Source: Lachnospiraceae bacterium
Lineage (GTDB): Bacteria > Bacillota > Clostridia > Lachnospirales > Lachnospiraceae
DNA: 64,000 nucleotides
Assembly (NCBI GenBank): GCA_014804425.1
Contig: JAAUZV010000014.1
Location: 437,121-501,120, forward strand
Direction: 5' to 3'
Positions 29,723-53,752 of this stretch are shown here, piece after piece. Position numbers and translations under genes: made by a program. Under the pieces are notes generated by a model, which ran no database searches, had not been told where the DNA came from, and worked only from the letters and a program-made list of their open reading frames with translations. How positions within the stretch are numbered: position 1 is the stretch's first letter; each line of letters begins with the position of its first letter.

Positions 29723-30361
29723 CTAGTCCTGCTCTTCTATTTTTCTGACTTCCTCGTTAAGGGAAAGCATCTTCGCATCCAGCTCCGAAACCATACGCGC
29801 GCATTCCATCAGCTCACGCTCGATCGTTTCCGGTGTCTCCCCCTCAAATTTGTAATGAATCTTATGCTCCAGGCTCGCCCAAAAATCCATCGCAACCGTT
29901 CGGATCTGAATTTCCACTTTCGTATCAACGATCCTGTCCGACAGATTGATCGGCACGGTGACAAGCATGTGATAGCTCTGATAGCCGTTCGGCTTCGGAT
30001 TTGTAAAGTAATCCTTGATCCCAATGACCTTCAGATCGCTCTGGCGCTCGATCATTTTCGCGATCTGTGCAATATCTGACGTAAAGGAACAGATCACGCG
30101 GATCCCCGCAATGTCATTCACATGCTCGATCATATTTTCGATCGTCGAATCATATCCGTTGCGCTTCAACTTCTTAACGATACTCTCCGATGTCTTGATC
30201 CTCGACTTGATATGCTCGATCGGATTATACTTATGTACGTGCTGAAATTCATCATTCAGGATCTCCAGCTTTGTTCCGATTTCTTTCAATGCCGATTGGT
30301 AGACAAGCTGCACTTCTTTCCACTTATCCACCTCGCTGTTTGCACTAGGCCAAAATTCCAT
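29723..30361 (-). CDS. Small alarmone synthetase (RelQ/RelP-type GTP pyrophosphokinase)
   Basis: DIAGIRVICSF, GYQSYHMLVTVP and EIQIRTVAMDFWASLEHKIHYK. The ATG at 30361 follows GGGGGAG; the tracked start at 30367 is GTG. Confidence 0.88.
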   Translation of the reverse strand: MEFWPSANSEVDKWKEVQLVYQSALKEIGTKLEILNDEFQHVHKYNPIEHIKSRIKTSESIVKKLKRNGYDSTIENMIEHVNDIAGIRVICSFTSDIAQIAKMIERQSDLKVIGIKDYFTNPKPNGYQSYHMLVTVPINLSDRIVDTKVEIQIRTVAMDFWASLEHKIHYKFEGETPETIERELMECARMVSELDAKMLSLNEEVRKIEEQD

Positions 30362-30556
30362 TTCCACTCCCCCAATCCAAGCTTACACTCAGGCTGTCGT
30401 TTTTGTGCTAAATTCTGTAATCATTATACCATATTTCGGAAAAAATGTACATTTTTCACAAATATTTAATGGTTTATTTACAAATACTACATTTTATCGC
30501 TATACTTTATATTTATCAGACGTATCTTGATCAAACAAAGTTGAAAGGAACTCGCA

Positions 30557-35948: not shown

Positions 35949-36800
35949 TTACGCATCCGGATTCTGCTTATGATATTCGGCAAATACATCCAGAATCTCC
36001 TTGTACAGCCGGTTTCCTTTCTCCTGTTGAAAATGCTTGACTAATGCGATATTTAATTTTTGCTTATCCGAAGACTTCACAACATAATCATAGATAAACT
36101 TATAGCTTCCGGCCTCCAGCCCTTCTTCCTTAACCGCCTTGCGGATTTTCTTTCTCATGCTCTCGGGCAGGGACGGTTTCTCGGCTTTTTTCTGATCGGA
36201 CGCCTTTTTTCCGGATGCCTTCTGATCGGACGGATCGGACGCCTCCTTGCTGGATGCCTTCGACGTTGATGACGTCTTACCGGAAGCCTTTTGCTTCGAC
36301 TGCCTGCTGCCGCTTACGGGCCGATCAGCCTGCATCGGTTCGGGAGCCGGATTCTTCTGCATATCCGCATGCTCGCCTCCCGCCGCCTGCACGCCCTTGC
36401 CCGCGTCTGACTGCGCCGCTGTCTGCGTCACCGCTTTTTGCTTTTGCAGCGATTCGCAGCGCGTGATCGCAATCTGCTTATTTGTCTTTCTCCAAAATTC
36501 GATACAGCTGTCGTATCCCTTATCCTTACTGATAATATAGTATACGCGCTCCTGCCCGCTTCCGATCAGGTATCCGAGATAGGTGACAAGCTGAAAATCC
36601 AGATAATTTTTTGCCACACGCTCCGTCTTCGTGTAGGTGACATCCGCCTTTGCCTTTGTCAGCTCCACATGCTTGTCAAACGCGATCGAGCCGGTCCGCG
36701 TCCCATAAAAAACAATGACCTTATCCTTTGCGGACAGCTCCTCCAAGCCCAATAACCCTGCCAGTCCCGTATTTTCCAAGTCAACCAGATAGGTTGCCAT
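35949..36800 (-). CDS. NYN/PIN-like domain protein with low-complexity Lys/Ser/Ala linker and helical C-terminal domain
   Basis: The N-terminus MATYLVDLENTG...VIVFYG...YYIISKDKGYD resembles NYN/PIN-fold nuclease cores (acidic residues after beta strands). The middle 90 aa are low complexity. Assignment is tentative. Confidence 0.45.
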   Translation of the reverse strand: MATYLVDLENTGLAGLLGLEELSAKDKVIVFYGTRTGSIAFDKHVELTKAKADVTYTKTERVAKNYLDFQLVTYLGYLIGSGQERVYYIISKDKGYDSCIEFWRKTNKQIAITRCESLQKQKAVTQTAAQSDAGKGVQAAGGEHADMQKNPAPEPMQADRPVSGSRQSKQKASGKTSSTSKASSKEASDPSDQKASGKKASDQKKAEKPSLPESMRKKIRKAVKEEGLEAGSYKFIYDYVVKSSDKQKLNIALVKHFQQEKGNRLYKEILDVFAEYHKQNPDA

Positions 36801-36859: not shown

Positions 36860-38002
36860 TTACAACCGCACCTCTCTGCCGTGTTTATAAACCCTTTGCA
36901 GCTCCCAATCATCGTTTACCACGAGCAGATCCGCTTTTTTTCCGACCGCAATGCTTCCGTAATCGGCGTCGATGCCGAGTGCCGCCGCCGGATTGCTTGT
37001 CGCGGCGCGCACCGCCGCCTCAGCCGGAACCCCCATACGGATCGCCGTCACCATGCAGTCATACAGATTGGTCACGCTCCCCGCGATCGTACCGTCCGAA
37101 AGCACTGCCCGTTTTCCGCGCACCGTGACCGCCTGACCGCCAAGCTCATACATACCGTCCGGCATTCCCGCCGCCATCATGCTGTCGCTGATCAGGATGA
37201 CATGCTCCTCCCCGAACAGCCGGAACGTCATACGCACCGCGCACGCATCCACATGCACGCCGTCGCTGATCAATTCCACATCCGCGCCGTGATCAAACGC
37301 CGCGCCGATCACTCCCGGCTCCCTGTGCGAAAACGGCGGCATCGCGTTAAACAGATGCGTCACCTGCTTTGCCCCCGTTTGCATCGCCCGGGCACATGCA
37401 GCATAGTCCGCCGTCGTATGCGCCACTGAAAAGCGAAATTGCTCCGCGCACGCTTCCATACACGCGATCGCCCCCTTCTGCTCAGGCGCGATTGCTACGA
37501 TCCTGATCAGCCCTTCCGCCTTCGCGTTCAGTCCGCGCAGCAGCTCTATGTCCGGAAGCCGCAGATATGCACTGTTCTGCGCGCCTTTTTTGGCTTCCGA
37601 TAAAAAGGGACCTTCCAGATAAATCCCTTTTAAGCACTCGCTTTCCTTCGCATATGCCGCCGCCTCTGCGCAGATCTTACGCAGCCGTTCTTCCGGCAAT
37701 GTCATTGTCGCGGGCGATATGACCGTGATTCCGTGGCAGAGCTCGTACCGCTCAATGGCTTCAAACGCCTCCTTGGTCCCTTCACAAAAATCATGTCCCG
37801 CGCAGCCGTGAAAATGAAGATCCACAAGTCCCGGCAAAATAGTAGCGCCCTGCACATCCACCGTTTCCGCGTCATGCAGGCGCGCTTCCTCCACCGTCTC
37901 TTTCTGCGGAACAATCCGCTCTATAATGCTATTTCGGAGCAGAAGGTTCCGCTTGCAAAACCCCTGCTCCGCAATATATACATTTCCGCCCAAAAGCCAC
38001 AT
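36860..38002 (-). CDS. nagA: N-acetylglucosamine-6-phosphate deacetylase
   Basis: GLVDLHFHGCAGHDF, VAHTTADY, THLFNAM, ELISDGVHV. Confidence 0.9.
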   Translation of the reverse strand: MWLLGGNVYIAEQGFCKRNLLLRNSIIERIVPQKETVEEARLHDAETVDVQGATILPGLVDLHFHGCAGHDFCEGTKEAFEAIERYELCHGITVISPATMTLPEERLRKICAEAAAYAKESECLKGIYLEGPFLSEAKKGAQNSAYLRLPDIELLRGLNAKAEGLIRIVAIAPEQKGAIACMEACAEQFRFSVAHTTADYAACARAMQTGAKQVTHLFNAMPPFSHREPGVIGAAFDHGADVELISDGVHVDACAVRMTFRLFGEEHVILISDSMMAAGMPDGMYELGGQAVTVRGKRAVLSDGTIAGSVTNLYDCMVTAIRMGVPAEAAVRAATSNPAAALGIDADYGSIAVGKKADLLVVNDDWELQRVYKHGREVRL

Positions 38003-38040: not shown

Positions 38041-39345
38041 CTATCGGATGACCTCCGCAATGGTATCAAGCACTTCGTCCCTGCTGAACGGCTTTACGAT
38101 AAATTTCGACGCACCGAGCTTGATCGCCTCTATTACCTTCTGCTGCTGTCCCGCTGCCGTGATCATCACAACATTGGCCGCCGGATCAAGTTCTTTTATT
38201 CTGCGCAGCGCCTCAACACCGTCCATTACGGGCATCGTAATATCCAGCGAGATCATATCGGGATGGTATTTCTGATAGACTTCGATCGCTTCCTCCCCGT
38301 TTTCCGCCTCGCAAACGACCGTATAGCCCGCCTTCTCCACCAGCACGCGCAGTGCATGGCGGATCAGCATAGAATCATCCACGATAATGATCGTGCCCTT
38401 ACTGTTCTCCGTCACCGCGCTTCCCGCCTGCTTTGCAACCTGTTTCTTATACGGCACGGTTCCCGGAACAATGTCCTCATTGACCGAAATAAACAATTCC
38501 AGTAACTTGCCTTTCAGATAAATCGGCACGATATAGCCCTTACCCTTCATCTGCTGCGATTCATGGGCAAACGGCGACTCCATATCGATAAAGATTCCTT
38601 TTTCGCTCAAACCGGAAGCAAACAATCCGCTGCATATGTTTGCAAACTCACCGATCACGTCATACGCAATGTCCTTTTTGCGCCTCGCCTGCTCACCTGC
38701 ATAGCCCGTTGCCAGCGTGTAAAGCCCCTCGTCATCCTCTTTTCCCACAAAGGCGAGCCAAACCTGATAGTCCCCGTTAATCTTCTGTCCCACGAGCGCA
38801 TGATACTCATAATCCTCCACACGGCGAATCCTGTCTATATAAAAATCCATCGTGATAAAACGCGCGATATTCCTCAAAACGAGCGCCGTCACATCTGTCA
38901 CAAACGGCTTCGCCGCAAACGCGAATACCGGAACGATCGCATCAATATCATCTTTCTTGAGCGCTTTCATGTCCTGATCTGAAAAGCCCTTGGTTTCCTG
39001 AAAACGCGAGAGATAGGCGTCGATCTCCGAAACCGGAACACAATTCTTCTCAACAAGTATCTGAAGGAACTTCATGAACGCATTGCCCTGCTGGTCTAAG
39101 AGCTCCATGAGCTGCTTCCCCGTCAGATAACCCTTCTCCAATGCAATATCGCCAAAGCGCTTATCCTGCTGCGCCTGCAGATGATGGATTTCCTCTACCT
39201 GCTCGTTCGTCAGATAACCGGCTGCCACGGCGATCGTTCCCAGCTTTGCCCGCGCATCCGTCTGCTCCGCTAATACGCTATCCATCATATCCTTTGTAAT
39301 CACGTTTTGTTCGAGCAAAAACGCGCCAAATAACTGACTAAACAT
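38041..39345 (-). CDS. Multidomain signalling protein: tandem MshEN-like motifs, CheX/CheC-like domain and C-terminal receiver
   Basis: N-terminal 24-aa motifs are separated by 5-aa spacers (see finding). The middle domain has DVIGEFANICSGLF...P, close to the CheC/CheX D-x3-E-x2-N-x22-P site. The C-terminal CheY-like receiver reads IIIVDDSMLIRH...MISLDITMPVMDG...VMITAAG...KPF. Confidence 0.7.
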   Translation of the reverse strand: MFSQLFGAFLLEQNVITKDMMDSVLAEQTDARAKLGTIAVAAGYLTNEQVEEIHHLQAQQDKRFGDIALEKGYLTGKQLMELLDQQGNAFMKFLQILVEKNCVPVSEIDAYLSRFQETKGFSDQDMKALKKDDIDAIVPVFAFAAKPFVTDVTALVLRNIARFITMDFYIDRIRRVEDYEYHALVGQKINGDYQVWLAFVGKEDDEGLYTLATGYAGEQARRKKDIAYDVIGEFANICSGLFASGLSEKGIFIDMESPFAHESQQMKGKGYIVPIYLKGKLLELFISVNEDIVPGTVPYKKQVAKQAGSAVTENSKGTIIIVDDSMLIRHALRVLVEKAGYTVVCEAENGEEAIEVYQKYHPDMISLDITMPVMDGVEALRRIKELDPAANVVMITAAGQQQKVIEAIKLGASKFIVKPFSRDEVLDTIAEVIR

Positions 39346-39471
39346 ATTGGCACCTTCCCCCTTTGCGGTTTTATTCTGACGCCCCGCATCGCGGCGTCCC
39401 TGTTTATTTTTACATTGTACTATAAAACATCCCGAATTTGAAGCTATTTTTGTTAAAATCAGGGAATTTAT

Positions 39472-39500
39472 TTGTCATTGCACCCAATCCGATGTATAAT
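39472..39500 (+). promoter_or_regulatory. Candidate sigma-A promoter (TTGTCA-17-TATAAT)
   Basis: TTGTCAttgcacccaatccgatgTATAAT, 45 nt upstream of the 72-aa ORF. Confidence 0.55.
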
Positions 39501-39544
39501 TGTTACAAGCAACATCAAATTATTTCAAAAGGAGCAGGATTCAG

Positions 39545-39763
39545 ATGGATATCAAAGAGCAAATTACAAGCACAGTAGAAAAGATCACAAAGGACAAGAC
39601 GCTGATGGCGCAGTTTCAAAAAGATCCCGTCAAGACGGTGGAAAACGTGATGGGCGTCGATCTCCCCGATGATACGGTGAAGAAGATCGTGGACGGCGTA
39701 AAGTCCAAGATCAACGTCGATAAGGTTTCCGATGCGCTCGACGGCATCAAGAAGCTGTTTTAG
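39545..39763 (+). CDS. Small hypothetical protein (72 aa, Lys/Asp-rich, helical)
   Basis: ATG at 39545 with AAAGGAG upstream. Has its own promoter and a terminator at 39794-39836. Confidence 0.55.
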   Translation: MDIKEQITSTVEKITKDKTLMAQFQKDPVKTVENVMGVDLPDDTVKKIVDGVKSKINVDKVSDALDGIKKLF

Positions 39764-39950: not shown

Positions 39951-40448
39951 TTATTTCCTACCATATACCTTCTGTATTTCTTTGTTCTTCATTATCACAA
40001 TCTTATCAATAAACCGTGTATGTCTTGAAAAGTAAAGCGCTTCTATCTGTTTTCTGATTTCATCATCCGATAGCGGACAATCTGTAACACTAAAAATAAA
40101 GCTTGAAGCTTGTTTCCTTTTTTTCGACACCACATTGTAAAACAAGTCTTTGCTTCTCCCGGTTGGTGATTTCAAGTCAAACCGCTCACCATCTATCAAA
40201 TAATCCGGGGTCTGTACACCTTGCGGAACCATTATCTGCGGCACAAATTCAACGTATTTCCCATCCACCTTGTATGTCGTGCCATTGACCGCATATTCTT
40301 GCCTTTCGATAACGCTTCCTTTTATTCCTGCACATTTTGTCCATTCATTTGTAATATCCATGAAATCTATTTTATCACTTAGACCCACTTCCTGCAATCC
40401 CGGCGTGTCACCGACTACAAAAGCCTGCTTCCGCCGTCGCGGGCGCAC
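39951..40448 (-). pseudogene. Orphan C-terminal fragment resembling the nuclease-like tail domain of phage minor-capsid / polyvalent proteins
   Basis: The frame opens with GTG directly after an in-frame stop and has no RBS. YKVDGKYVEF...TPDYLIDGERFDLKSP...ASSFIFSVTDCPLSDDEI...IDKIVIMKN matches, from memory, a tail module seen on large phage/ICE proteins. The segment is visibly AT-richer than its flanks and lies next to a tRNA. Confidence 0.4.
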
Positions 40449-42965: not shown

Positions 42966-44672
42966 TCAATCTTTTCGGATCGCCTCCGTGCGGATGATGA
43001 ATTTCACGCTTGAATCCACGCCTTCAGGCGCTCCGCTGAACGTCCGATAGGATTCCCCCGCATCCATGACGGCGTTAAGTCTTTCCGAAAATTCCACGAG
43101 ATTGCCGTTATCCATGCTGGAAAATACTGCTGCCAGTTCCTGAATGCCCTCCTCGTCAAACTGCCTCATTCCGTTACAGAGCGTCCTGCTGCCGTCCTCT
43201 AACAGATTCGCTCCGTCGCCCAAGGCCGTCAGACCGTCGTAAAGCGTCCATGCGCCCTGATTTGCAGTATCAATACCGCCGCTTAAATCATTCGCTCCCT
43301 GCACGAGCGTCATCATATCGCCTGCATTTGCCGCAAGTCCGTCGTAGATGCCACTTAAAGTTGCAAGGTAGGTCAACTCATTCTGTGTCATGCCCTGTGC
43401 CTGCATCACGCTTGCGATTGCCTGCTCCTTCGACATGCCGTAGCCTGCCATCATCTGTCCGACCGCCTGCTCAAACTGTGCATAGCCGTCATGTGCCGGC
43501 TTGAGCTGTACCATCATGTCATTCAGCGTTTCTGCAAGCTGCCCGACGCCTCCCGCAACCGCCTTTCCGCCGTCAGAGAGCTGCTGCATTCCCGCTGCCA
43601 GCGCATAAGCTCCCTCTTGGGCGCTCGCCGCCCCCTCTGCCAAATCCTGCGCACCTGCCGCAAGCTGTTCACTGCCGTCCACAAGCTGCCTTGAACTGTC
43701 GGACAACAGCGTCATTGCATCCTCCAAGGTATCAAGCTGCCCGGACACACCGCTTAAATCAATGTCTGCGCCAAGGTCGATATCAGAAAACAGATTCGGA
43801 AGAATCATGCTCAGGGTCATTTCAAGCTCAAAGTTCACAACATCTGCTTCAATCTCCAAATAGTCGGGCGCATCCACATTGACCGCTCCCGTACCCGCGC
43901 CGTTTTCGGCAAGTGTTTCCCTTGTCTCCTCACTGAGATTGAGGTTCTCGGCAAGTCCCGGAAACGCAACCCCAATGATGATTGCGTTATTCCCCTCGGT
44001 AAGAATCTTTCCGCTGGATACCGTGATACTTGAGAAATGCTCCAGCGGCAGGATTGCACCGCTGATCACCGCAAACGGTACATAAACCTCCGTCTCTTCC
44101 CCGCCGATCACCGTCGTCTGCTTCGCGCGGTTCTCATAGTCAAAACGAATTACAACGTGCCCGCTTTTTCCTGCAAGCTCCTCCGGTTTGATCTCCACGC
44201 CGTCCAGATAATAAGTCATTGTCAAACCGATCGGCAGTTCCGCATCCGTTGTTCCCTGATAGAAAATATCCGAACCCTCCGCCTGCCATGTGATCGCATT
44301 GCCGCTTCCGGCCGTATAGGTCTGTGTTCCCTTCACGTTCTCAATGTCTGTCAAAGTGGTCTCATCCTCAAGAACCTGCGCGCCCTCGCCGTTCTTCAAT
44401 TGATTGCTCACAATGATATTTCTTGTTGTTCCGTCTGCTCCGGCGATCACATAAACGGTCTCATCCTTGCCTGACTCTGCGCTGTGGGAAATGATCTGCT
44501 GGCCGAATGCCTCCGTCAGCACTTCCTCAGTCGCTTCTTCTTTTTCCGCCGCACTTACTTTATCCACATGAAGATCATTGATCAATACCGTGCCGACACA
44601 TCCGGTCACGGTCACAACTGCCGCCGTAACAGCAACACCTTTTATCCAATTTCCACGTTTCATCCGTTTCAT
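42966..44672 (-). CDS. Membrane-anchored/secreted protein with YhgE/Pip-like helical repeats
   Basis: N-terminal anchor/lipobox-like VTVTGCVG. The C-terminal half has degenerate repeats of the type LVDGSEQLAAGAQDLAEGA.. / LSDGGKAVAGGVGQL / LYDGLTALGDGANLLEDGSRTLCNG. Confidence 0.6.
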   Translation of the reverse strand: MKRMKRGNWIKGVAVTAAVVTVTGCVGTVLINDLHVDKVSAAEKEEATEEVLTEAFGQQIISHSAESGKDETVYVIAGADGTTRNIIVSNQLKNGEGAQVLEDETTLTDIENVKGTQTYTAGSGNAITWQAEGSDIFYQGTTDAELPIGLTMTYYLDGVEIKPEELAGKSGHVVIRFDYENRAKQTTVIGGEETEVYVPFAVISGAILPLEHFSSITVSSGKILTEGNNAIIIGVAFPGLAENLNLSEETRETLAENGAGTGAVNVDAPDYLEIEADVVNFELEMTLSMILPNLFSDIDLGADIDLSGVSGQLDTLEDAMTLLSDSSRQLVDGSEQLAAGAQDLAEGAASAQEGAYALAAGMQQLSDGGKAVAGGVGQLAETLNDMMVQLKPAHDGYAQFEQAVGQMMAGYGMSKEQAIASVMQAQGMTQNELTYLATLSGIYDGLAANAGDMMTLVQGANDLSGGIDTANQGAWTLYDGLTALGDGANLLEDGSRTLCNGMRQFDEEGIQELAAVFSSMDNGNLVEFSERLNAVMDAGESYRTFSGAPEGVDSSVKFIIRTEAIRKD

Positions 44673-44689
44673 CTCACATCATCCTTTCT

Positions 44690-46804
44690 CTATGAATTCT
44701 GCAGCTCGCCAACGACTCTGTCTTTTTTCTCCCTTTTCTTGCGGAAGCCCATACTGGTATGACAGATCAGTCCGTCAAAGATCAGGAACATGCTCGGCAG
44801 CACGAGCAATACGACTGCCATACTGATCAGCGCGCCTCTCGCCATCAGCATACACAGAGCGCTGATCATATCTATATTACTGTAAAGACCGACGCCAAAG
44901 GTTGCTGCGAAAAAGCTCAGCGCACTGACGATCACCGATTGAATCGACTGGCTGTGCGCTGAAAATACCGCTTCTTTTTTATCCTTGCCCTCATAGCGCG
45001 CATCCTTATATTTATTTGTCATCAAGATCGCATAATCGACTGTCGCGCCGAGCTGGATCGTTCCGATGACAATGGAAGCGATAAACGGCAACGTCGTCTT
45101 TGTATAATACGGAATACCCATATTGATGAAGATCGCGAACTCGATGACCGCCACCAAGATGACCGGCAGCGAGATCGACTTGAACACAAGCAGGATGAGT
45201 AAAAAGATCACCCCGATGGATACGATCGATACCGTCTGGAAATCATGGTTAGTAATGGAAATCAGATCCTTGGTGCAGGACGCCTCTCCGATCACCATGC
45301 CGGCTGCGTCATAACGCTTCACAATATCCACAAGTGCATCACATTGATCATTTACTTCATCCGTTGCCACCGCGTATTCCGATCCGATCATCATCATCTC
45401 GTACCGGTCATTTGCGACCTCACCCGTCAATGACTCCGGAAGGATTTCCTTCGGAATGGTCGGTCCGAGCAGTGCGCTTAAACCGAGTACATTCTTGACG
45501 CCGTCCACTTCTTTGATCTCTGACAGCATCCGGTCCATATCGCTGGTCTTCATATGAGAATCAACTAAAATGATATGTGTGCTTCCCATTTCAAATGTTT
45601 CATCCAATTTATCATTCGCCATGATGCTGGGCAGACCCTTTGGCAGCGTACCTGCCAGATCATAGTATACCTCGGTGCGGGTGTATCCGATCGTAGCCGG
45701 AACCCAGATCAGTGCAAACAGGACTGCCAATATGATGTAATGCTTCGTCACGAACTTCGTTACGATCGTGAATTTCGGTAAAAGCTGCTTGTGGCTCGTG
45801 CGCTCCAGCGCCTTATCAAACAGTAAGATCATGGACGGCAGGACGGTCACACAGCAGATCACGCCGATCACAACGCCCTTCGCCATAACGATACCCAGAT
45901 CCAGACCGAGCGTGAAGCTCATGAAGCACAGCGAAATGAATCCGGCAACCGTTGTCAAAGAACTTCCCATGACGGAGGTAATGGAGTTTCCGATCGCATG
46001 TGCCATCGCGTCATATTTATCTGTCGGATTGTTTGCTTTTTCCGCCTTATAGCTGTGCCACAGGAAAATGGAATAATCCATCGTCACACCTAATTGCAGT
46101 ACCGCGCTCAGCGCTTTCGTTACATAGGAGATCTCTCCCCAGAAGATATTCGTTCCTAAATTGTAGACGATCGCGATTCCGATACTCAACAGGAAGAACA
46201 ATGGTATCAGGAAGGAGTCCATCGTCAGCGACAATACGACCAGCGCTAAGATCACTGCGATCACCACATAAACCGGAACTTCCTTGTCGGACAGATTCTT
46301 GATATCCGTGACAACCGCGCTCATTCCGCTGATAAAGCAGCGCTCATCCGCAATACTTCGGATCTCCTCGATCGCGTCCATCGTCTCATCTGCAGACATC
46401 GTTGTGTCAAACAGGATTGCCATCATCGTACAGTCCGCATCCCCGTTATAGAACGCTTCCCTGATCGAATCCGGCAGAATGCTGATTGGGATGGAAATGT
46501 CTGCGATATCATCATACCAAATGACGTTTTTGACATGATCCACAGCCTCCATCTTCTCCTCCAGTATACTGATCTCTCTCGGCGTCATGCCGTCCAACAC
46601 ACAGATGGAGAACGCACCCGTTCCGAACTCATCGACAAGAATGTCCTGTCCCTCCATCGTCTCAATGTCTTCGGGAAGATACGAGAGAATGTCATAATTG
46701 ACTCTCGTGTTGACATACCCGATTCCCGCCGGAATCAGCAGCAGCAGACTCAAGACAAAAATGACATATCTGCATTTTACGATTCCCTTTCCAAGCTTAT
46801 ACAT
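44690..46804 (-). CDS. MMPL/RND-superfamily transporter
   Basis: Two blocks of about 6 TM helices, each preceded by an extracytoplasmic domain. VTMDYSIFLWHSY and GATVDYAILMTNKY are typical MMPL TM motifs. The ATG at 46804 is preferred over 46825. Confidence 0.85.
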   Translation of the reverse strand: MYKLGKGIVKCRYVIFVLSLLLLIPAGIGYVNTRVNYDILSYLPEDIETMEGQDILVDEFGTGAFSICVLDGMTPREISILEEKMEAVDHVKNVIWYDDIADISIPISILPDSIREAFYNGDADCTMMAILFDTTMSADETMDAIEEIRSIADERCFISGMSAVVTDIKNLSDKEVPVYVVIAVILALVVLSLTMDSFLIPLFFLLSIGIAIVYNLGTNIFWGEISYVTKALSAVLQLGVTMDYSIFLWHSYKAEKANNPTDKYDAMAHAIGNSITSVMGSSLTTVAGFISLCFMSFTLGLDLGIVMAKGVVIGVICCVTVLPSMILLFDKALERTSHKQLLPKFTIVTKFVTKHYIILAVLFALIWVPATIGYTRTEVYYDLAGTLPKGLPSIMANDKLDETFEMGSTHIILVDSHMKTSDMDRMLSEIKEVDGVKNVLGLSALLGPTIPKEILPESLTGEVANDRYEMMMIGSEYAVATDEVNDQCDALVDIVKRYDAAGMVIGEASCTKDLISITNHDFQTVSIVSIGVIFLLILLVFKSISLPVILVAVIEFAIFINMGIPYYTKTTLPFIASIVIGTIQLGATVDYAILMTNKYKDARYEGKDKKEAVFSAHSQSIQSVIVSALSFFAATFGVGLYSNIDMISALCMLMARGALISMAVVLLVLPSMFLIFDGLICHTSMGFRKKREKKDRVVGELQNS

Positions 46805-46986
46805 CGTCTCATCCGCTCCTTTCATTTTGGAAAACCTGATCGTTCTTCCCTGCGGCTCCTTGCCTCCGCAGGCGTTTTTGTTTCTGTGTGGAGCAGTATA
46901 CGCAATCTTTTCACGAAAAAAAATATGCAAAAAAAGAGAACTGTCTTCAAGAAAAAGACAATTCTCATTTTCTGTTAGTCCATTTT

Positions 46987-47039
46987 ATACAAAATCGCCA
47001 TTTTGTATTTGTGCAAGATGATGCAGATTACTTGCACAA
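46987..47039. promoter_or_regulatory. Two adjacent inverted repeats, candidate TetR operators / MMPL promoter region
   Basis: ATACAAAAT-CGCC-ATTTTGTAT (46987-47008) and TTGTGCAAG-N13-CTTGCACAA (47009-47039), between the tetR stop and the MMPL start. Confidence 0.45.
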
Positions 47040-47075
47040 TTCTCTACAGGATTCTTCGTACCGCATTCCTGCTCA

Positions 47076-47654
47076 TTACTGCATCGCCTCGATCATATCC
47101 TTCATGGAATGCGTCAACAGAAACTCATAGATATCCGCCATATCCGAGGGCGAAACATCCGAATCCTCGTTCAGCCAGCGCATGACAATGAAGGTGAGGG
47201 AATGGGCATAATAGTCTGCCAGGTTCTCCATCGTTAGGAATTTCTTCATGAGCGGATTGCCCGTTTCCGCCCTCCCGCGCGTCTCCTCCATCATATACTC
47301 ATAAAGCAGACTCTTAATGCATTCCTTCGTGATCGACTGAAAGGAATTCTGCCCCTCCAACCTGCTCGCTTTGTGGTAAAATTCGCGTTCCTTTGAGAGA
47401 TTGGTAAAAATGATCGTGATCGCCGCATTGATCATTCCGCTTTTGATCAACGGCATCATCGGCTCTAAGATTTCTGTGCGGATGATGTACTCCAAGAGTT
47501 CGTATTTATCCTGAAAATGGTTATAAAAAGTCGGTCTGATCACGCCGGCTCCGTCCGTGATATCCTTGATCGTGATTTTTTCAATCGGCATGCGGAGGGT
47601 AAGCTCCTTAAAGCTCTCCGCCAGCCGCAGATCCATCTCGCTTTTTGTCTGCAT
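47076..47654 (-). CDS. TetR/AcrR-family transcriptional regulator
   Basis: HTH region IEKITIKDITDGAGVIRPTFYNHFQDKYEL. Confidence 0.88.
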   Translation of the reverse strand: MQTKSEMDLRLAESFKELTLRMPIEKITIKDITDGAGVIRPTFYNHFQDKYELLEYIIRTEILEPMMPLIKSGMINAAITIIFTNLSKEREFYHKASRLEGQNSFQSITKECIKSLLYEYMMEETRGRAETGNPLMKKFLTMENLADYYAHSLTFIVMRWLNEDSDVSPSDMADIYEFLLTHSMKDMIEAMQ

Positions 47655-47919
47655 AGTTACCCGCCTTAACACTTAGAATGTCCCCTGCCGTTCGTGGGGA
47701 CGACACAAAAAGTATTTTAGCGTAAAACCGAACGTTTGACAATGCGGGCGGCTGTTTTTTGTTCCCGAATTTCTTACTTTTTTATAAAAAAAGAACCAAC
47801 TCGGATTTTGTCAAAACAACCGGAATCCTGTTTGACGCGCTTGTACTTTCCTATTTAATGTGATAAACTTTGTTATATTTTTACACAAGCGCGGCGAACG
47901 AACCGCGGAGGAGGCAGGA

Positions 47920-49014: not shown

Positions 49015-50118
49015 TTAAAAATCACGAATTTCCGCGAGCGCGGGCAGCGCATTTCCGTCATAATCAAACAACGCCTGATTTGCCCACTCATTACCGCAGG
49101 GTCCCTTATCGCCGATATAGGCAAGCGATTCCGGTGTTGCCCAGCCGGAACCGGGTACGGGAATCCATGCGGGCTCCCAATAGAAAAATCCTTTTCCCCT
49201 GCCGTTCGGAACGTCCCGGATGACCTGCATGACTTCCTTCATAAACTTCCGCTGTCCCTCGGGTGTCATCGGATACGGTACTTTCTCGGCAAGCTCCGCT
49301 TTCGTCGCCATGCCCTTGCGCTCCTCATCCGCAAGTTTTTCGTACGCCTGATAGTCTTCCATCGTATATCCCATGGACACCTCGGCAACGATCACATCCT
49401 TTTGATAACGTTCGGAAATGTCTTTCATATTATCGGCAAGACCCGAAAGAGGGCCGTGCCAGAACGGATAATAGGATAATCCGATGATATCGAAATCCTC
49501 ACCACGCTCCATATAATGGTCGAACCAATCCCGATACAGCGCGTTATTGCCGCCGTTATCCAAATGGATCATGACCGGAAGGTTTGCGTCTACCGCGCGC
49601 GCGGCACGGATCCCCGCGCTGATAAACCGCGCGATATTGTCGTAAGCGGGCATTTTCGCGTTCGGCCACAACAGTCCGTTCGTCACCTCGTTTCCGATCT
49701 GGATCATCGTCGGAAATGCGTTTTCTTTTTTCAGTGTAAGCAGCACCCTGCACGTATAGTCATACACTGCCTGCTCCAGCTGGTCGTCGTCATAACCCGC
49801 CCACGCCTTCGGCTTGATCTGCTTCCCCGGGTCTGTCCAAAAATCACTGTAATGCAGGTCAAGAAGAAACTGCATACCCTGTGCAAGCGCACGCTTCGCA
49901 ATTCTTACGGTCACGGCAAGGTCATTTGTCCCCGCGCCGTAAGGTTTCTTTGTCTCCGAATAGGGATCGTTCCACAGACGCAGACGCACAGCGTTTGTCC
50001 CGTAGCGTTTCAGGATGGAGAACAGCTCGCCCTCCTGCCCGTTGTCATAAAATCTTCCCCCACACCGCTCAACTTCCTCGATGGTGGAGACATCCATTCC
50101 TTTGATAAATTCTGCCAT
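49015..50118 (-). CDS. Arabinogalactan endo-beta-1,4-galactanase, GH53 (intracellular form, no signal peptide)
   Basis: [69 protein letters not shown]. Confidence 0.88.
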   Translation of the reverse strand: MAEFIKGMDVSTIEEVERCGGRFYDNGQEGELFSILKRYGTNAVRLRLWNDPYSETKKPYGAGTNDLAVTVRIAKRALAQGMQFLLDLHYSDFWTDPGKQIKPKAWAGYDDDQLEQAVYDYTCRVLLTLKKENAFPTMIQIGNEVTNGLLWPNAKMPAYDNIARFISAGIRAARAVDANLPVMIHLDNGGNNALYRDWFDHYMERGEDFDIIGLSYYPFWHGPLSGLADNMKDISERYQKDVIVAEVSMGYTMEDYQAYEKLADEERKGMATKAELAEKVPYPMTPEGQRKFMKEVMQVIRDVPNGRGKGFFYWEPAWIPVPGSGWATPESLAYIGDKGPCGNEWANQALFDYDGNALPALAEIRDF

Positions 50119-50125
50119 AAGCCCT

Positions 50126-50341
50126 CTAGTCCTCAAATTCTGTGATTCTGTCGGCGATTCTGCCATAACGGAATCTGGCCAGCTCGTTCTTTTTTAATAC
50201 GTCCTCTTCCGTGCCGTGATACTGGCAGCGGATACAGTAGTATTCTTTTTTATCGCGGTCGTAAAACATATCAATATCAAGGTCTCGCATAAAGCAGGAC
50301 GGACACCGGTAATTTAATTTGCCTTTTCCAGATTGAGCCAT
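50126..50341 (-). CDS. Small Cys4 zinc-ribbon protein (71 aa)
   Basis: CPSC...CIRC. GGAGGT lies 9 nt upstream of the ATG, inside the upstream gene. The gene overlaps the upstream gene by 28 nt and ends 7 nt before the GH53 start. Confidence 0.6.
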   Translation of the reverse strand: MAQSGKGKLNYRCPSCFMRDLDIDMFYDRDKKEYYCIRCQYHGTEEDVLKKNELARFRYGRIADRITEFED

Positions 50342-52152
50342 GTCGTAAATACCTCCTTATCAGAAATTTCCGTTTGATAGCCTAACGTGAACATCGGGGA
50401 GAATGCATAGCCCTCCTTCACATAGCCGGATGCCTTGTCGCAATCGGTGCTGAGCGATACACGCGTCTCGATCTGCGGCACTACCGCCGTTACGCGCTCT
50501 GCGCCCGCAAGGGAAGCCTCCCTGCACTTGTATGCGTAATCAATCGTTTCCTTTTCAGCGCCCTTTTCGATGCTGAGGGTAATGCCGGTCATGTCCTCGG
50601 AATACTCCGTTGTTCCGTAGCATGCCACCATATACTCGTTTAAATCCACTTTTGCATTCGGATCGCTCATGGAAAGCACCTTGCGCTCGATACCGATGCG
50701 CGAGCTGCCCTCTTCAAATAACAGCCTTGTCTGAAGCTTCATGGTCAGGTCGGCAAACTCAATTTCCACCGGATCGAGCGTCAGGATTCGGGTCTGTCCT
50801 TCCTCTGAAAAATGCGCCTTCGTGCGGCAGAGACATAAGTCCACTTCCTCGCCGTTGTAAGTTAACTTTGCGCTTCTGACCGTTCCTTCGCCGGCATAGT
50901 GCGTAAAGTATCCGGCGCGGTATTTTTCCTGCATCAGGAACGGGTAGGACGCGTCGGTCACATGCTTTGTCCCGATGCCGACCGGCCAATTGAGCTTCGC
51001 CGCATAAGGTCTGAGGTCAACGATCGCGCCGCCCTGATCCATATTGACGCATGCACGCATATACGGATCGCAATACCAGAACAGCTGCTTGTCCGAACCG
51101 TAAAGAATATCTTTCCAAAGCGCACACTCCGGCTCGGTATAGCGTCTGTTCTCACGATACCAGTCCGCGAATTCCGCCATCGTCATATCGCTTAATTTTC
51201 CTTCTTTTTTCAGCTTGCCGTAATAAGCGCAGCCATCCTCGTAGGATTTGAGCAGCAGCTCATAGGGCGCCTCCCAGCGTCCCATCTTGTTCATCCAGCC
51301 GGGTCCTACGAACATCATGTTGTACGCATAGCCGTTATTGAACTTTGCTAAATGACGATACTGGTCGATCAGATTATATAAATACGGGAACTCCCATGTT
51401 TCCGTATCATAGATCATACCGCGCAGTACGTTCTGCGGATGCGTACCGAAATTGGAGCCGTTGCCGTCATAGCAAGCGAGCAGATCGCGGGATAAATGCG
51501 GGATCGCCACGATGCCGGAATCCTCCGCCTCATTCGCAGCAGGCGCATGCGTATTCTGCTTACTCGGAATCCACGGCGCCCACGGACCGCCGTCCATGAA
51601 GGTGTACCACGAGTTGTTGCAGGTGTGATATGCTTTCGGTCCTTCCTCCCAGCATGTCGCAACCGCACATTTCACCATTGGATATTTTTCTTTGATATAA
51701 TTCGTCAGCTCCGCGTCCATGTAATAGGAGCCTGTTGACTCAGGATAAAAACCGAAGCGCTCATGGAATTTGCCGAACACATCGTCTACGATGGATTTCT
51801 TGTCCTCCATCGAGAACATCCAGATACAAAAATCCTTTGTCTTGTATTTCTCACGGAACTCCTTGCACGGAAGTCCTAAGAGCGTCAGCGCGATCTCGTC
51901 GCCGTACTGCTCATGATCCGCCTTTGCCAGTTCCACTGCCTCATCATTAAAAAGAGAAGCGTACGTCATCTGGATCGTTGTCTTCAATCCGTTCTTATGC
52001 GCAATTGCCTGCTGTGTCTTGAAAATGTCGAGAGACTCCGTCAAAAGCGCCTTTCTCCCGATGTCTTCCTCTTTCCCGTGTCCGGTTACTTTTTCGGCAT
52101 ACTCCGGCACCATCTCGGGACGATGAATGATGTTGACGATAAATTTCTCCAT
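50314..52152 (-). CDS. Uncharacterised 612-aa cytoplasmic protein, candidate carbohydrate-active enzyme by context only
   Basis: Strong RBS (AAGGAGG) and no signal peptide. First gene of an operon with the Zn-ribbon gene and GH53. I cannot place the sequence in a known family by eye. Confidence 0.5.
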   Translation of the reverse strand: MEKFIVNIIHRPEMVPEYAEKVTGHGKEEDIGRKALLTESLDIFKTQQAIAHKNGLKTTIQMTYASLFNDEAVELAKADHEQYGDEIALTLLGLPCKEFREKYKTKDFCIWMFSMEDKKSIVDDVFGKFHERFGFYPESTGSYYMDAELTNYIKEKYPMVKCAVATCWEEGPKAYHTCNNSWYTFMDGGPWAPWIPSKQNTHAPAANEAEDSGIVAIPHLSRDLLACYDGNGSNFGTHPQNVLRGMIYDTETWEFPYLYNLIDQYRHLAKFNNGYAYNMMFVGPGWMNKMGRWEAPYELLLKSYEDGCAYYGKLKKEGKLSDMTMAEFADWYRENRRYTEPECALWKDILYGSDKQLFWYCDPYMRACVNMDQGGAIVDLRPYAAKLNWPVGIGTKHVTDASYPFLMQEKYRAGYFTHYAGEGTVRSAKLTYNGEEVDLCLCRTKAHFSEEGQTRILTLDPVEIEFADLTMKLQTRLLFEEGSSRIGIERKVLSMSDPNAKVDLNEYMVACYGTTEYSEDMTGITLSIEKGAEKETIDYAYKCREASLAGAERVTAVVPQIETRVSLSTDCDKASGYVKEGYAFSPMFTLGYQTEISDKEVFTTWLNLEKAN

Positions 52153-52258
52153 GTCTGCCTCCTTATGATATGACTTTCTGTATTATCTCCATAACAGCAG
52201 GCCCGACGGCTGAGCCGTTATGTTGTATTCCGCCGCTATTGCGCACCTTGATCCGCTT

Positions 52259-52275
52259 GGTTGCGCAACCGGTTG
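52259..52275. promoter_or_regulatory. Candidate LacI-family operator (GGTTGCGCAACCGGTTG)
   Basis: Perfect 12-bp palindrome GGTTGCGCAACC overlapping the palindrome CAACCGGTTG. Near-identical to 54845-54861 (14 of 17 positions). Confidence 0.45.
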
Positions 52276-52404
52276 TCCTCTTTTCCATAGTCTACCAAAG
52301 CGCCGTTTCCTTGTCAATTATTATCCGTCCGGCTTTTTCACTGATTTTGCGACGACTTCTTTGTACATTTTTCCCAAATTGCGCAGATCGGGATGCGGCG
52401 CCGA

Positions 52405-52974
52405 TCACTTCATCCATCCGGCGCCGGCATTCCATGCTTTTCCGACCTGCTCACCGGACACATAGTATCCATGCTGGAATTGATCAAAGATCAGTGCATC
52501 CAATTTTACGGGATCCACTTTTCCATTCTCCGCAAGTACGCTTTCTTCGGCCGCAGTATTTACAATTTTTCCTACGATACAATAGAAGCTCTCTGTTTCC
52601 ACAACCTCTGCAAGTGTGCACTCCATCACCACCGGGAATTCCTCGATGATCGGTGCATCTACATGAACACTTTTTGCCGCCGTATAGCCGGTTCTTTCAA
52701 ATTTGTCAGGCATCTTGTTTCCTGTGGCTATCCCGAAGAAATCAGCCACATCCATATGCGCCCGGTCTGCAATGCTTACCGTAAACGCTTTTCTCTTCAG
52801 CAGATTTTGGGTCGTCTTATGCTCTTCATCAATAAATAATGCGATTCTGTCTTCATTGCAGATCATCCCCCATGCAGCATTCATCACATTTACTTTGTCT
52901 TCCTCCCCATATGCGGCCACCATCAGAACCGGCATAGGATAAACAGCCTGAACCACTCCTAAATCTTTCTTCAT
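52405..52974 (-). CDS. Flavin reductase-like (FMN-binding split-barrel) protein
   Basis: VYPMPVLMVAAYGEEDKVNVMNAAWGMI..., a paralogue type of the 26989-27555 gene. Confidence 0.75.
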   Translation of the reverse strand: MKKDLGVVQAVYPMPVLMVAAYGEEDKVNVMNAAWGMICNEDRIALFIDEEHKTTQNLLKRKAFTVSIADRAHMDVADFFGIATGNKMPDKFERTGYTAAKSVHVDAPIIEEFPVVMECTLAEVVETESFYCIVGKIVNTAAEESVLAENGKVDPVKLDALIFDQFQHGYYVSGEQVGKAWNAGAGWMK

Positions 52975-53049
52975 CTCATTTTTCCTCCATTTTCGTTGTT
53001 TTCATTCTTCTATGCTTAAACAGAGAAAGTTTCTATATTAATATTTAGC

Positions 53050-53151
53050 TCAATTAACTGTCCCTTGGGTACCGGAATCATATTGTTGATATTGACTCAA
53101 ATATTTTATGTAAGAATCCTTCACTCCATATATTCTTATGTTATTTTTCAT
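53050..53151 (-). pseudogene. Truncated toxN/abiQ-like type III toxin gene (33 codons)
   Basis: AAGGAG RBS followed by MKNNIRIYGVKDSYIKYLSQYQQYD. This resembles, from memory, the ToxN/AbiQ N-terminus (MKFYTISSKYIEYLKEFD). A stop follows after 33 codons. Confidence 0.5.
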
Positions 53152-53202
53152 AAAACTCCTTCGTACGCGAGCAAAAACATTCTTTAAATGCCGCATTATC
53201 CG

Positions 53203-53235
53203 ACAGAAAAGGCAGAGACTCAAGTAGTCCCTGCC
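53203..53235 (-). terminator. Rho-independent terminator between the RNA repeats and the toxN remnant
   Basis: Minus strand reads GGCAGGGACT-ACTTG-AGTCTCTGCC followed by TTTTCTGT. Confidence 0.7.
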
Positions 53236-53243
53236 ATCTGCTA

Positions 53244-53315
53244 ACCCGCTCATTTAAGGGCTGTGCATCACCCACTTATAACTCGCTCATTTATAAGGCT
53301 GTGCATCACCTACTA
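53244..53315 (-). ncRNA. Candidate ToxI/antiQ-like antitoxin RNA: two direct repeats of 35 and 37 nt plus a partial third
   Basis: Minus strand has TAGTAGGTGATGCACAGCCTTATAAATGAGCGAGT and TATAAGTGGGTGATGCACAGCCCTTAAATGAGCGGGT, then TAGCAGATGGCA... The order promoter - repeats - terminator - toxin matches type III TA loci. Confidence 0.5.
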
Positions 53316-53320
53316 CATTT

Positions 53321-53350
53321 AGTATACACGATTTTTCTCTAAAAACAACT
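53321..53350 (-). promoter_or_regulatory. Candidate promoter of the repeat RNA (TTGTTT-16-TGTATACT)
   Basis: Minus strand reads TTGTTTttagagaaaaatcgtgTATACT, with an extended -10 TG. Confidence 0.45.
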
Positions 53351-53404
53351 TCTTTTATAAAATTTTTCTTCTTTTTAAATCTCTTCATACTGCAGCAATC
53401 GCAA

Positions 53405-53695: not shown

Positions 53696-53752
53696 ATTGA
53701 ATCCCTTTCCAATTTTACAATGGCTGATTTTCGGAAAATCGCCCGCTCCTCT

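Follow-up and report, generated by a model that had tools for sequence, protein, structure and literature searches.

The window, by which we mean the whole 64-kb stretch of Lachnospiraceae DNA analysed here, holds at positions 38041..39345 of the minus strand a complete ORF with an ATG start, 434 codons for amino acids and a stop; all features of the gene given below lie on this strand. Its product combines an N-terminal array of MshEN_N-type repeats with a CheX-like domain and a CheY-like receiver (REC). The N-terminal 'MF' is invariant across the family of this protein and a strong Shine-Dalgarno sequence, AAGGGGGAAGG, is found immediately upstream of the ORF (39352-39363). Together with it, the putative expression signals (39352..39442) comprise a GC-rich 5'-UTR hairpin (GACGCC...GGCGTC; 39378-39398) and a -35/-10-like pair (TTCAAA-17-TACAAT; 39414-39442). 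Their assignment is tentative because the promoter and terminator scan of the window returned counts at or below the shuffled expectation, i.e. no excess of promoter-like sequences. The AF2 model of the whole protein has a pLDDT of 89.3 and a pTM of 0.82; as the full-length fold search is swamped by the REC domain, residues 1-312 were modelled separately. The three-domain reading (MshEN-type, CheX-like and receiver), proposed in an earlier note made from the DNA letters, survives profile, structure-prediction and family-conservation tests. Further weak Pfam matches, e.g. FumaraseC_C, CARD, IZUMO, DUF4388 and PDE8A_N, were discarded as noise: they are sub-threshold and overlap either the helical repeats or the REC domain.

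The repeat array (residues 1-119; 38989..39345) is delineated by DSSP of the models, by the NCBIfam profile NF053729 and by PDB profile matches to MshE (5HTL) and PilF (6F8L). It consists of eight helices, which form four helix-pair repeats with a 29-residue period, i.e. a 24-residue motif followed by a 5-residue spacer. The three 24-residue segments with 5-residue spacers noted earlier are present exactly as quoted. Of the 11 key positions of the motif, the segments at residue 5, 34 and 63 match 9, 10 and 11, respectively. The first of these, repeat 1 (residues 5-28, LFGAFLLEQNVITKDMMDSVLAEQ; 39262..39333), has Leu rather than Arg/Lys at position 1, is moderately conserved and is weaker than repeats 2 and 3. 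Repeat 2 (residues 34-57, KLGTIAVAAGYLTNEQVEEIHHLQ; 39175..39246), which aligns to MshE motif I, shows near-invariant K/R34, L35, G36, A39 and Q57; across the family it has Asn/His54 in place of the second conserved Leu and Ala/Val at the first. Repeat 3 (residues 63-86, RFGDIALEKGYLTGKQLMELLDQQ; 39088..39159) displays invariant R63, F64, G65, A68, L83 and Q86, and shares with repeat 2 an Ala (A39, A68) at motif position 6. The fourth, degenerate copy that had also been proposed corresponds to repeat 4 (residues 92-115; 39001..39072; mean match 0.59), in which the hydrophobic helix-pair pattern is kept, the Gly at position 3 is missing and Phe replaces the terminal Gln. A helical connector (residues 120-146; 38908..38988), with conserved G120, F121, A128-L-K130 and D135, leads from the array to the CheX-like domain.

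The background of such motifs is low: elsewhere in the window, six-frame ORFs totalling 57,645 aa contain only three isolated 9/11 matches and none of 10 or more, and at least one segment at 9/11 was obtained in only 168 of 20,000 shuffles of the window protein. The NCBIfam profile NF053729 ('c-di-GMP_motif, MshE-related') matches three stretches and scores 77.9 bits (cutoff 38); it equally recovers 37/37 of the split relatives described below. Thus, of the profile matches that the earlier note had suggested looking for, the MshE-related one was recovered, but the Pfam profile search found no T2SSE_N match in the window protein, consistent with the MshEN_C subdomain being absent. A profile of the family aligns residues 29-86 on residues 4-61 of Vibrio cholerae MshE (5HTL, E = 8.6e-6), and in Foldseek the AF2 model superposes on the c-di-GMP-bound MshE of the same entry over 55 columns with an rmsd of 0.7-1.0 Å, 33 % identity and a probability of 1.0. 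Placing repeats 2 and 3 on MshE yields 18/55 (33 %) identical positions, in agreement with the Foldseek superposition on 5HTL at 0.7 Å, this register being deduced indirectly from the identity value of that alignment. The fit to the MshEN motif is near-perfect for repeats 2 and 3, and conservation and model together make this pair the best candidate for a c-di-GMP site. Changing two to three of the Leu residues in MshE abolishes binding, and XpsE-type MshEN domains have lost it (Wang et al., 2016; PMC5013675). In PilF, the GSPII-B domain binds with a KD of 6 nM, Leu or Lys at position 1 being compatible with nanomolar binding, and GSPII-A, in which one motif is good and the other degenerate, is a non-binder (PMC11731258).

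The CheX-like domain (residues 147-290; 38476..38907) adopts the CheX fold in its entirety and has one predicted active site. Its top 13 Foldseek matches are all CheX crystal structures, covering ~152/154 residues with TM-scores of 0.65-0.74 (3H2D, 3H4Y, 3HM4, 3IIC, 1XKO, 3HZH_B, 1SQU and 6VPW; E 1.5e-7 to 4.6e-6), CheC and FliY structures reaching a TM-score of only ~0.4, and a PDB profile search retrieved chains of the CheC/CheX family only. The predicted catalytic helix, supported by conservation and by alignment with CheX, is D229-V-I-G-E233-F-A-N236 (D-x3-E-x2-N; 38638..38661), in which D229, E233 and N236 are invariant in sets of 40 and of 120 fused members; in the split members E233 is invariant and N236 is conserved in at least 90 %. 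E233 and N236 align to E96 and N99 of Thermotoga maritima CheX. This is the only E-x2-N helix of the domain, the first helix having R158-N159 and no Glu. The family consensus N-x20-PP, represented by S257-P258 in the window protein, has a spacing identical to that of T. maritima CheX. Thus, where the sequence had been described as within one residue of the CheC/CheX signature, the D-x3-E-x2-N motif stands, whereas the supposed deviation disappears. The Pfam profiles are divided: the window protein scores just above the gathering threshold (GA) for CheC (PF04509; 23.0 vs 22), but below it for CheX (PF13690; 17 vs 27). Pfam CheX is nevertheless matched by 39/40 family members at E <= 0.01, and the NCBIfam profile 'CheY-P phosphatase CheX' by 15/37 split members.

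A poorly conserved linker (residues 291-317; 38395..38475) precedes the CheY-like receiver (residues 318-434; 38044..38394); in the split relatives, which have two genes, its place is taken by a stop codon, an intergenic spacer and a start codon. The receiver is identified by Pfam, PDB and fold matches and is complete, as had been supposed: Response_reg is matched with E = 4e-32 and the phospho-acceptor pocket is intact, with D323, D324, D368, T396 and K418 all invariant. Its identity to T. maritima CheY amounts to 45-46 %, with a TM-score of 0.95, and that to the stand-alone REC encoded beside the split relatives to 47-50 %. In the PDB profile search CheY is matched at 1e-30 and Spo0F at 1e-19 to 1e-20; a Spo0F-like reading was rejected, as the CheY matches are better by ~10 orders of magnitude.

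Full-length homologs of the window protein form at least 120 clusters and are present in 340 reference species, all of them Lachnospiraceae, which rules out an orphan in the sense of a protein without homologs; the term used earlier holds for the lack of a linked kinase or che neighbours, but not in the face of hundreds of full-length relatives. The carriers include Butyrivibrio, Roseburia, Lachnospira (with Lachnospira eligens) and Agathobacter, all of which are flagellated genera. Beyond the fused proteins, the array and CheX part belongs to a larger family of ~295-residue proteins without the REC domain, which match residues 1-290 of the window protein over their whole length and represent the '(MshEN_N)2-CheX' architecture discussed below. 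A CheY-like REC is present at 78/78 informative metagenome loci: it is fused in 20 and encoded by a separate gene in 58, the latter starting 11-107 nt downstream on the same strand. The same pairing recurs in two unrelated further contexts. The adjacent stand-alone receivers are 44-54 % identical to the fused one, and fusion has at least two independent origins, one of them by simple loss of a stop codon, which leaves an 11-residue linker. Across 80 genome and 80 metagenome loci there is no third conserved partner, other neighbours reaching at most 13/80 loci in one set and at most 10/80 in the other; the top neighbour clusters are housekeeping genes, among which the members of the family invariably lie dispersed. 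With nothing except the REC partner conserved, a functional assignment from operon context was dropped. The domain identities, the conservation of their key residues and the obligate pairing of phosphatase-type protein and receiver are thus direct observations. Because the REC is fused or adjacent at every informative locus, no third partner is conserved and fusion has occurred at least twice, the predicted CheX-type phosphatase and this receiver are, on comparative grounds, a dedicated pair, of which the window gene is the fused form. The constant presence of the REC, fused or adjacent, and its repeated fusion also speak strongly, and independently of the earlier note, for the idea put forward there of a phosphatase directed at its own receiver.

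In keeping with what had been noted for the immediate neighbourhood, the entire 64-kb window lacks chemotaxis and flagellar genes, and no che or flagellar linkage is conserved among ~160 related loci. Nor does a riboswitch for c-di-GMP, or any other RNA, lie close to the gene, the window containing a SAM riboswitch and one tRNA only. The window does encode the c-di-GMP phosphodiesterase of the HD-GYP type that had been recognized at 14263-15336 (Pfam HD_5, 98.5 bits; motifs HDIGK and HHERCDGTGYP). Genes for methyl-accepting chemotaxis proteins (MCPs) lie in the flanks of 11/80 genome loci, a density typical of chemotactic genomes, which serves as a weak proxy for co-occurrence with CheA and flagella at the level of the genome. 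Since che and flagellar linkage is absent from both the window and the related loci, it is homology, together with what is generally known of the carrier taxa, that points to chemotaxis; a role of the module in this process is thus putative.

We consider it somewhat more probable than not, and the likeliest of the readings, that the protein is a fused sensor-phosphatase with a dedicated receiver, in which c-di-GMP tunes the dephosphorylation of the partner receiver. The gene product would then be the fused form of a self-contained two-part module, composed of the MshEN_N array-CheX protein and its CheY-like receiver. The receiver would be phosphorylated on D368, most likely by CheA, given its CheY-like character and the constant lack of a kinase gene beside the module. 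E233 and N236 of the CheX-like domain would be inserted into the active site of the receiver and the acyl phosphate hydrolysed, comparable to the CheX-CheY3 pair of Borrelia burgdorferi. Binding of c-di-GMP to the array, primarily to repeats 2 and 3 and possibly to repeats 1 and 2, would alter via the helical connector how the phosphatase engages the receiver, and the lifetime of REC~P would become a function of c-di-GMP. The output might be the strength of a phosphate sink that competes with motor CheY, or else the amount of an alternative CheY~P; in both cases the chemotactic or flagellar behaviour of Lachnospiraceae would be coupled to c-di-GMP status. Of this scheme we infer the binding of the ligand, the catalysis, the direction of the regulation, the phosphodonor and the output in the cell. 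Several observations count against it: Asn/His and Ala/Val occupy the Leu positions of repeat 2, Ala occupies position 6 and MshEN_C is absent. To these are added the Pfam CheX score below threshold and the missing che and flagellar linkage. In its favor count the profile, fold and conservation evidence for the array and the CheX-like domain, the pairing with the receiver, the intact phospho-acceptor residues, the HD-GYP phosphodiesterase in the window, the flagellated carrier genera and the MCP genes in the flanks.

An alternative that we judge unlikely is that the linked receiver serves for input or targeting, such that its phosphorylation by CheA or another kinase and c-di-GMP jointly gate the action of the CheX-like domain on motor CheY~P in trans. 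The dephosphorylation of CheY~P would then be under an AND/OR gate with two inputs. Stand-alone CheX enzymes do use free CheY~P as a substrate in trans, exemplified by the 3HZH complex among the matches, a CheY-like REC could dock to CheA or to the switch, and obligate linkage is equally expected of a regulatory domain. However, the receiver is a separate single-domain protein at 58 of the 78 loci, which is a better fit to a substrate or partner than to an allosteric domain, and its fusion through loss of a stop codon, with a linker of 11 residues, implies that both proteins were already working as a 1:1 complex.

Quite unlikely, in our estimate, is a role outside chemotaxis, with the module as a c-di-GMP-controlled single-domain response-regulator switch that would receive its phosphate from an unlinked orphan kinase or from acetyl phosphate and act by protein-protein interaction on another target (e.g. 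biofilm, pili or development). The lack of che and flagellar neighbours in the window and at the ~160 loci, the constant scattering among housekeeping genes and the resemblance of the REC to Spo0F-type single-domain receivers as well would all fit. Against this, the best REC matches are to CheY, CheY-type receivers are the only known substrates of CheX-fold phosphatases, the carriers are typical flagellated genera, and the chemoreceptor density in the flanks is that of chemotactic genomes.

Very improbable is that the array no longer binds c-di-GMP and is a degenerate MshEN_N-derived helical scaffold for dimerisation or partner binding, or a site for another nucleotide: while the family-wide departures from the motif (Asn54, Ala39, Ala68, the degenerate repeat 4 and the Arg-less repeat 1) and the non-binding PilF GSPII-A and XpsE-type precedents point that way, in repeats 2 and 3 there is almost no variation in R/K-L/F-G, in the second Gly, in the hydrophobic pair or in the Gln at the end, indicating purifying selection on exactly the ligand-contact positions, the NF053729 cutoff is exceeded about two-fold, and Arg at position 1 is dispensable in the nanomolar binder PilF GSPII-B (PMC11731258).

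Returning to the sensor-phosphatase with its dedicated receiver, a more speculative extension, to which we assign a low probability, is that the four-repeat array functions as a graded or cooperative multi-site c-di-GMP sensor with overlapping candidate sites (repeats 1+2, 2+3 and 3+4), and that the obligate pair is a general converter of messenger level into phosphorylation of a diffusible CheY-like protein that controls flagellar behaviour. If so, it would link c-di-GMP directly, and in a way not recognised so far, to phosphosignalling of the two-component or chemotaxis type, and flagellar behaviour, and hence flagellin exposure, would be under its control in dominant Lachnospiraceae of the human gut. 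Roseburia, Agathobacter, Lachnospira eligens and Butyrivibrio are abundant flagellated commensals of the human gut, in which c-di-GMP signalling and motility control are, to our knowledge, essentially unstudied. The routes by which c-di-GMP enters the chemotaxis phosphorelay are under active study; those known are indirect and run via PilZ proteins such as YcgR, MapZ, PlzD and PlzC, the last acting on CheX in Vibrio (PMC12799141, PMC12887009). A putative c-di-GMP sensor covalently joined to a CheX-type protein and provided with its own CheY-like partner would be a minimal one- or two-protein system, suited to reconstituting the coupling in vitro.

The core of this architecture has been catalogued before: Wang et al. 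(2016; Nat Commun 7:12481, PMC5013675, Supplementary Table 4, Fig. 3b) list '(MshEN_N)2-CheX' in silico for Deltaproteobacteria and Firmicutes, with Glov_2742 of Geobacter lovleyi as the example. Compared at the level of the catalogued architecture, the two share tandem MshEN_N-only motifs, without MshEN_C, N-terminal to CheX. The window protein is this architecture with a fused REC, and hence not a new architectural class. The entry, made by computation alone, mentions no linked receiver, and our literature search found no experimental characterisation of MshEN_N-CheX proteins. What is new here, as judged from the loci compared, is the obligate link of the catalogued sensor-phosphatase architecture to a receiver, split or fused: its presence at 78/78 loci makes a concrete and testable addition to the 2016 entry.

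With the CheX phosphatases (T. maritima 1XKO/1SQU, B. burgdorferi CheX-CheY3 3HZH and V. vulnificus 6VPW) the CheX-like domain shares the fold over its whole length, the single D/S-x3-E-x2-N helix and, in the family consensus, the N-x20-PP spacing of the T. maritima protein. Yet it is only 12-19 % identical to them, lies outside a che operon, and unlike them has a 146-residue sensor and connector ahead of it and its own receiver behind it or paired with it. The array, in turn, has in common with MshE (5HTL) and the GSPII domains of Thermus thermophilus PilF, the c-di-GMP receptors of T2SS/T4P ATPases, pairs of 24-residue motifs, 5-residue spacers and four-helix-bundle geometry. PilF also furnishes precedents for three consecutive motifs (GSPII-C) and for a residue other than Arg at position 1 (GSPII-B). 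The window array differs from both in having four consecutive repeats, no MshEN_C/T2SSE_N1 and no ATPase, and in the family-specific Ala at position 6 and Asn54. A receiver and an MshEN-type site also coexist in one polypeptide in Bdellovibrio Bd2402 (REC - MshEN_N - UNK), for which tight c-di-GMP binding was reported, and in other MshEN-REC proteins (Wang et al., 2016; PMC5013675). These, however, have a different domain order and no CheX phosphatase. The Cle proteins of Caulobacter, likewise CheY-like receivers, act on the flagellar motor in a c-di-GMP-dependent manner; they bind the ligand with an Arg-rich extension at the C-terminus instead of MshEN motifs and lack a phosphatase domain. 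The closest in logic is the PlzC-CheX pair of V. cholerae, in which a c-di-GMP effector modulates CheX and thereby the CheY-P-dependent reversal frequency (Park et al., PNAS 2026; PMC12799141). In both, c-di-GMP signalling would be tied to chemotaxis via CheX. PlzC, however, is a separate PilZ protein that acts in trans, with a motility role that seems separable from c-di-GMP binding, whereas the window protein carries its putative MshEN-type sensor covalently within the phosphatase-like protein itself.

The gene at 38041-39345 (reverse strand) encodes, from an ATG start, a 434-aa protein which combines c-di-GMP motifs of the MshEN_N-only kind with a CheX fold and is a receiver-fused variant of the catalogued, uncharacterised (MshEN_N)2-CheX family. 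Strong purifying selection acts on the functional residues of its c-di-GMP-type motif array, its CheX-type catalytic domain and its phosphorylatable CheY-like receiver (REC). Upstream of the ORF lie a promoter-like element and a strong Shine-Dalgarno sequence; between them the 5' leader contains a GC-rich hairpin (GACGCC...GGCGTC, 39378-39398, reverse strand), which is no terminator as no T-run follows it.

The N-terminal array comprises repeat 1 (residues 5-28, LFGAFLLEQNVITKDMMDSVLAEQ), repeat 2 (residues 34-57, KLGTIAVAAGYLTNEQVEEIHHLQ) and repeat 3 (residues 63-86, RFGDIALEKGYLTGKQLMELLDQQ), the first followed by the spacer TDARA and the second by AQQDK, exactly as the earlier note had quoted them. 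Its claim that these segments fit the published MshEN motif also holds: with a period of exactly 29 residues, they match 9, 10 and 11, respectively, of the 11 key positions used for scoring, and the array scores 77.9 bits (cutoff 38) against the curated NCBIfam domain model 'c-di-GMP_motif, MshE-related'. The rest of the window (six-frame ORFs, 57,645 residues) yields three isolated 9/11 matches and none higher, and just 0.8 % of the shuffled versions of the protein contain even a single 9/11 segment. The degenerate fourth copy is likewise present (repeat 4, residues 92-115), retaining the hydrophobic pattern without the Gly and the terminal Gln.

A profile of residues 1-125, built from 30 family sequences, recovers Thermus thermophilus PilF and Vibrio cholerae MshE from the PDB, with MshE residues 4-61, i.e. 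its ligand-binding motif pair, aligned with family residues 29-86. For residues 1-312, the AF2 model (pLDDT 86.9, pTM 0.82) can be superposed on MshE with bound c-di-GMP (5HTL) at 0.7-1.0 A, sharing 33 % identity with it across the 55 aligned columns; the register pairing repeats 2+3 has this same identity (18/55), against 20 % for 1+2 and 24 % for 3+4. Repeats 2+3 are thus the best candidate c-di-GMP site. Repeat 1 has Leu at motif position 1, which is not disqualifying, since PilF GSPII-B, with Lys and Leu at this position, binds at 6 nM (PMC11731258). PilF GSPII-C, in which three consecutive motifs bind one ligand, offers a precedent for three motifs in a row. GSPII-A pairs a good motif with a degenerate one and does not bind, which speaks against repeats 3+4 being a functional site (PMC11731258). 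As caveats on c-di-GMP binding, both Leu positions of repeat 2 are substituted family-wide (Ala/Val50, Asn/His54), and motif position 6 is Ala in repeats 2 and 3.

The CheX-like phosphatase domain proposed earlier is borne out by fold, catalytic residues and family-level profiles alike, with Pfam marginal for the window protein alone (CheC just over threshold, CheX under it). The best 13 Foldseek matches of the central domain are all CheX crystal structures (TM 0.65-0.74), covering nearly the whole ~154-residue target, with CheC, FliY and FliM clearly lower. A family profile of residues 118-312 matches only CheC/CheX-family chains in the PDB, and 39 of 40 family members match Pfam CheX. The signature D229-x3-E233-x2-N236 is invariant in the family, and the N-x20-PP spacing is that of Thermotoga maritima CheX. 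The C-terminal domain is, as had been noted, a complete CheY-like receiver (Pfam E = 4e-32; D323, D324, D368, T396 and K418 invariant), and it is most closely related to bona fide CheY proteins (T. maritima CheY: 45-46 % identity, TM 0.95).

The earlier description of the protein as an orphan, in the sense of one lacking relatives, has to be given up. At least 120 clusters, of 431-447 aa and with 48-96 % identity at full coverage, share the full-length architecture, which occurs in 340 species-representative genomes, the best 80 of which are all Lachnospiraceae or unclassified Clostridia, including Butyrivibrio, Lachnospira, Roseburia, Agathobacter, Acetatifactor and '[Lactobacillus] rogosae', among others; uncultured Lachnospiraceae MAGs carry proteins 97-98 % identical to that of the window organism. 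Searched exhaustively with HMMER, residues 1-300 retrieved 543 representatives at E <= 1e-10, most of them of 285-300 aa and aligning end to end, and therefore array-plus-CheX proteins without a receiver; the fused type (~430 aa) accounts for only ~13 of the best 150 matches. These short forms, also found in Lachnospiraceae and annotated as 'hypothetical protein' or 'CheY-specific phosphatase CheX', are the '(MshEN_N)2 - CheX' architecture listed for Geobacter lovleyi Glov_2742 and 'Deltaproteobacteria, Firmicutes' (Wang et al. 2016, Supplementary Table 4, PMC5013675). Our literature search found no characterisation of any family member.

Phosphatase and receiver are inseparable in evolution. 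On two different short-form contigs the next same-strand gene, 13-78 nt downstream, encodes a 119-138-aa single-domain receiver that shares 47-50 % identity with the fused REC along the entire domain, and all other neighbours differ between the two contexts. Among 80 metagenome loci found with the short-form alignment, 58 are split, with the REC ORF starting 11-107 nt past the stop codon, 20 are fused, and two are cut off by a contig end too early to be scored; the receiver is thus fused or adjacent in 78/78 informative loci. No third gene is conserved, the commonest further ORF cluster reaching at most 10/80 metagenome and 13/80 genome loci, and the recurrent neighbours beyond REC are housekeeping genes. 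When the array-plus-CheX part is placed on a neighbour-joining tree, computed without support values, fused forms including the window protein make up one 29-tip clade, and a lone fused sequence (locus L111) is nested among split forms outside it. In place of the TAG stop codon seen in its split relatives, L111 has an open frame in which the old Shine-Dalgarno spacer is translated ('...ELN-ERNDK-MAKVLLVDDS...'). Given this separate placement and read-through, fusion arose at least twice; such repeated fusion is a classic Rosetta-stone signature of two proteins working as a 1:1 pair. In the split relatives L105, L112 and L113 (about 4870-4900), the stop codon of the first gene is followed by GGAGG and then the REC ATG within ~10-20 nt, a spacing which suggests tight translational coupling.

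Several other features of the window deserve mention. The studied gene is followed, after a 38-nt gap without a terminator, by a NagA-like amidohydrolase (36860-38002, -) and then by a PIN7-domain (PF18475) protein (35949-36800, -) with a long Ser/Lys/Ala-rich low-complexity middle. Just upstream, a 165-aa ORF (39951-40448, -) with a precomputed CdiA_C (PF18451) toxin-domain match and an 87-aa ORF (39500-39763, +) without a Pfam match may form an orphan toxin/immunity-like pair; no full-length CdiA lies nearby. The previously noted HD-GYP protein, a candidate c-di-GMP phosphodiesterase (14233-15336, +; Pfam HD_5 98.5 bits), has the canonical motifs (HDIGK, HHERCDGTGYP) and an uncharacterised ~140-aa N-terminal domain. 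It adjoins metK; a SAM (S-box) riboswitch (13976-14100, -; Rfam RF00162, 63.4 bits) directly precedes the S-adenosylmethionine synthetase gene (12713-13900, -). A RelA_SpoT-type small alarmone synthetase (29723-30367, -), ~8 kb from the studied gene, has counterparts at two related loci (L004, 12743-13411; L007, 18978-19643), two genes downstream in Butyrivibrio, and within 8 kb in 11/80 genome loci; this recurrence may reflect residual synteny or a loose association of (p)ppGpp and c-di-GMP genes. A LytTR-type two-component pair (19334-20829, -; REC-LytTR regulator 20113-20829, GHKL kinase 19334-20116) adjoins ABC-2 transporter genes (15561-19193). An apparent operon (42966-47672, -) combines the genes of a TetR regulator (47076-47672) and an MMPL-family transporter (44690-46930) with that of a 568-aa protein (42966-44672) which begins with a signal or transmembrane segment and lacks a Pfam match. 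A galactan/beta-galactoside utilisation cluster (49015-59168) contains two GH53 endo-galactanases (49015-50166, -; 56994-59168, +), a GH42 beta-galactosidase (54953-57007, +), a LacI regulator (53753-54814, -) and a 612-aa ORF without a Pfam match (50314-52152, -).

Mechanistically, we propose that the CheX domain would dephosphorylate its own or the partner REC~P, and that c-di-GMP bound to the array would modulate this reaction by way of the helical connector conserved at residues 120-146. As no kinase is linked to the module, CheA would be the obvious candidate phosphodonor; for the output, the candidates are a phosphate sink, an alternative CheY that binds the motor, and a target outside chemotaxis. 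A chemotaxis role is favoured by the best REC matches being CheY proteins, by CheX enzymes having no known substrates other than CheY-type receivers, by the genera carrying the fused form being flagellated, and by chemoreceptor genes in the flanks of 11/80 genome loci. Against it, no che or flagellar genes are linked to the module in related loci or in the 64-kb window, the earlier note having already seen none near the gene. This prediction concerns relevant organisms and is both attractive and readily testable.

The core idea was already published in 2016; what is new is the obligate CheY-like partner, its repeated fusion and the occurrence of fused proteins in a Lachnospiraceae clade only. 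The predicted working principle resembles that of the recently described V. cholerae PlzC-to-CheX route (PMC12799141). However, whereas PlzC is a separate PilZ protein acting in trans, the window protein has an MshEN-type sensor built into the phosphatase itself.
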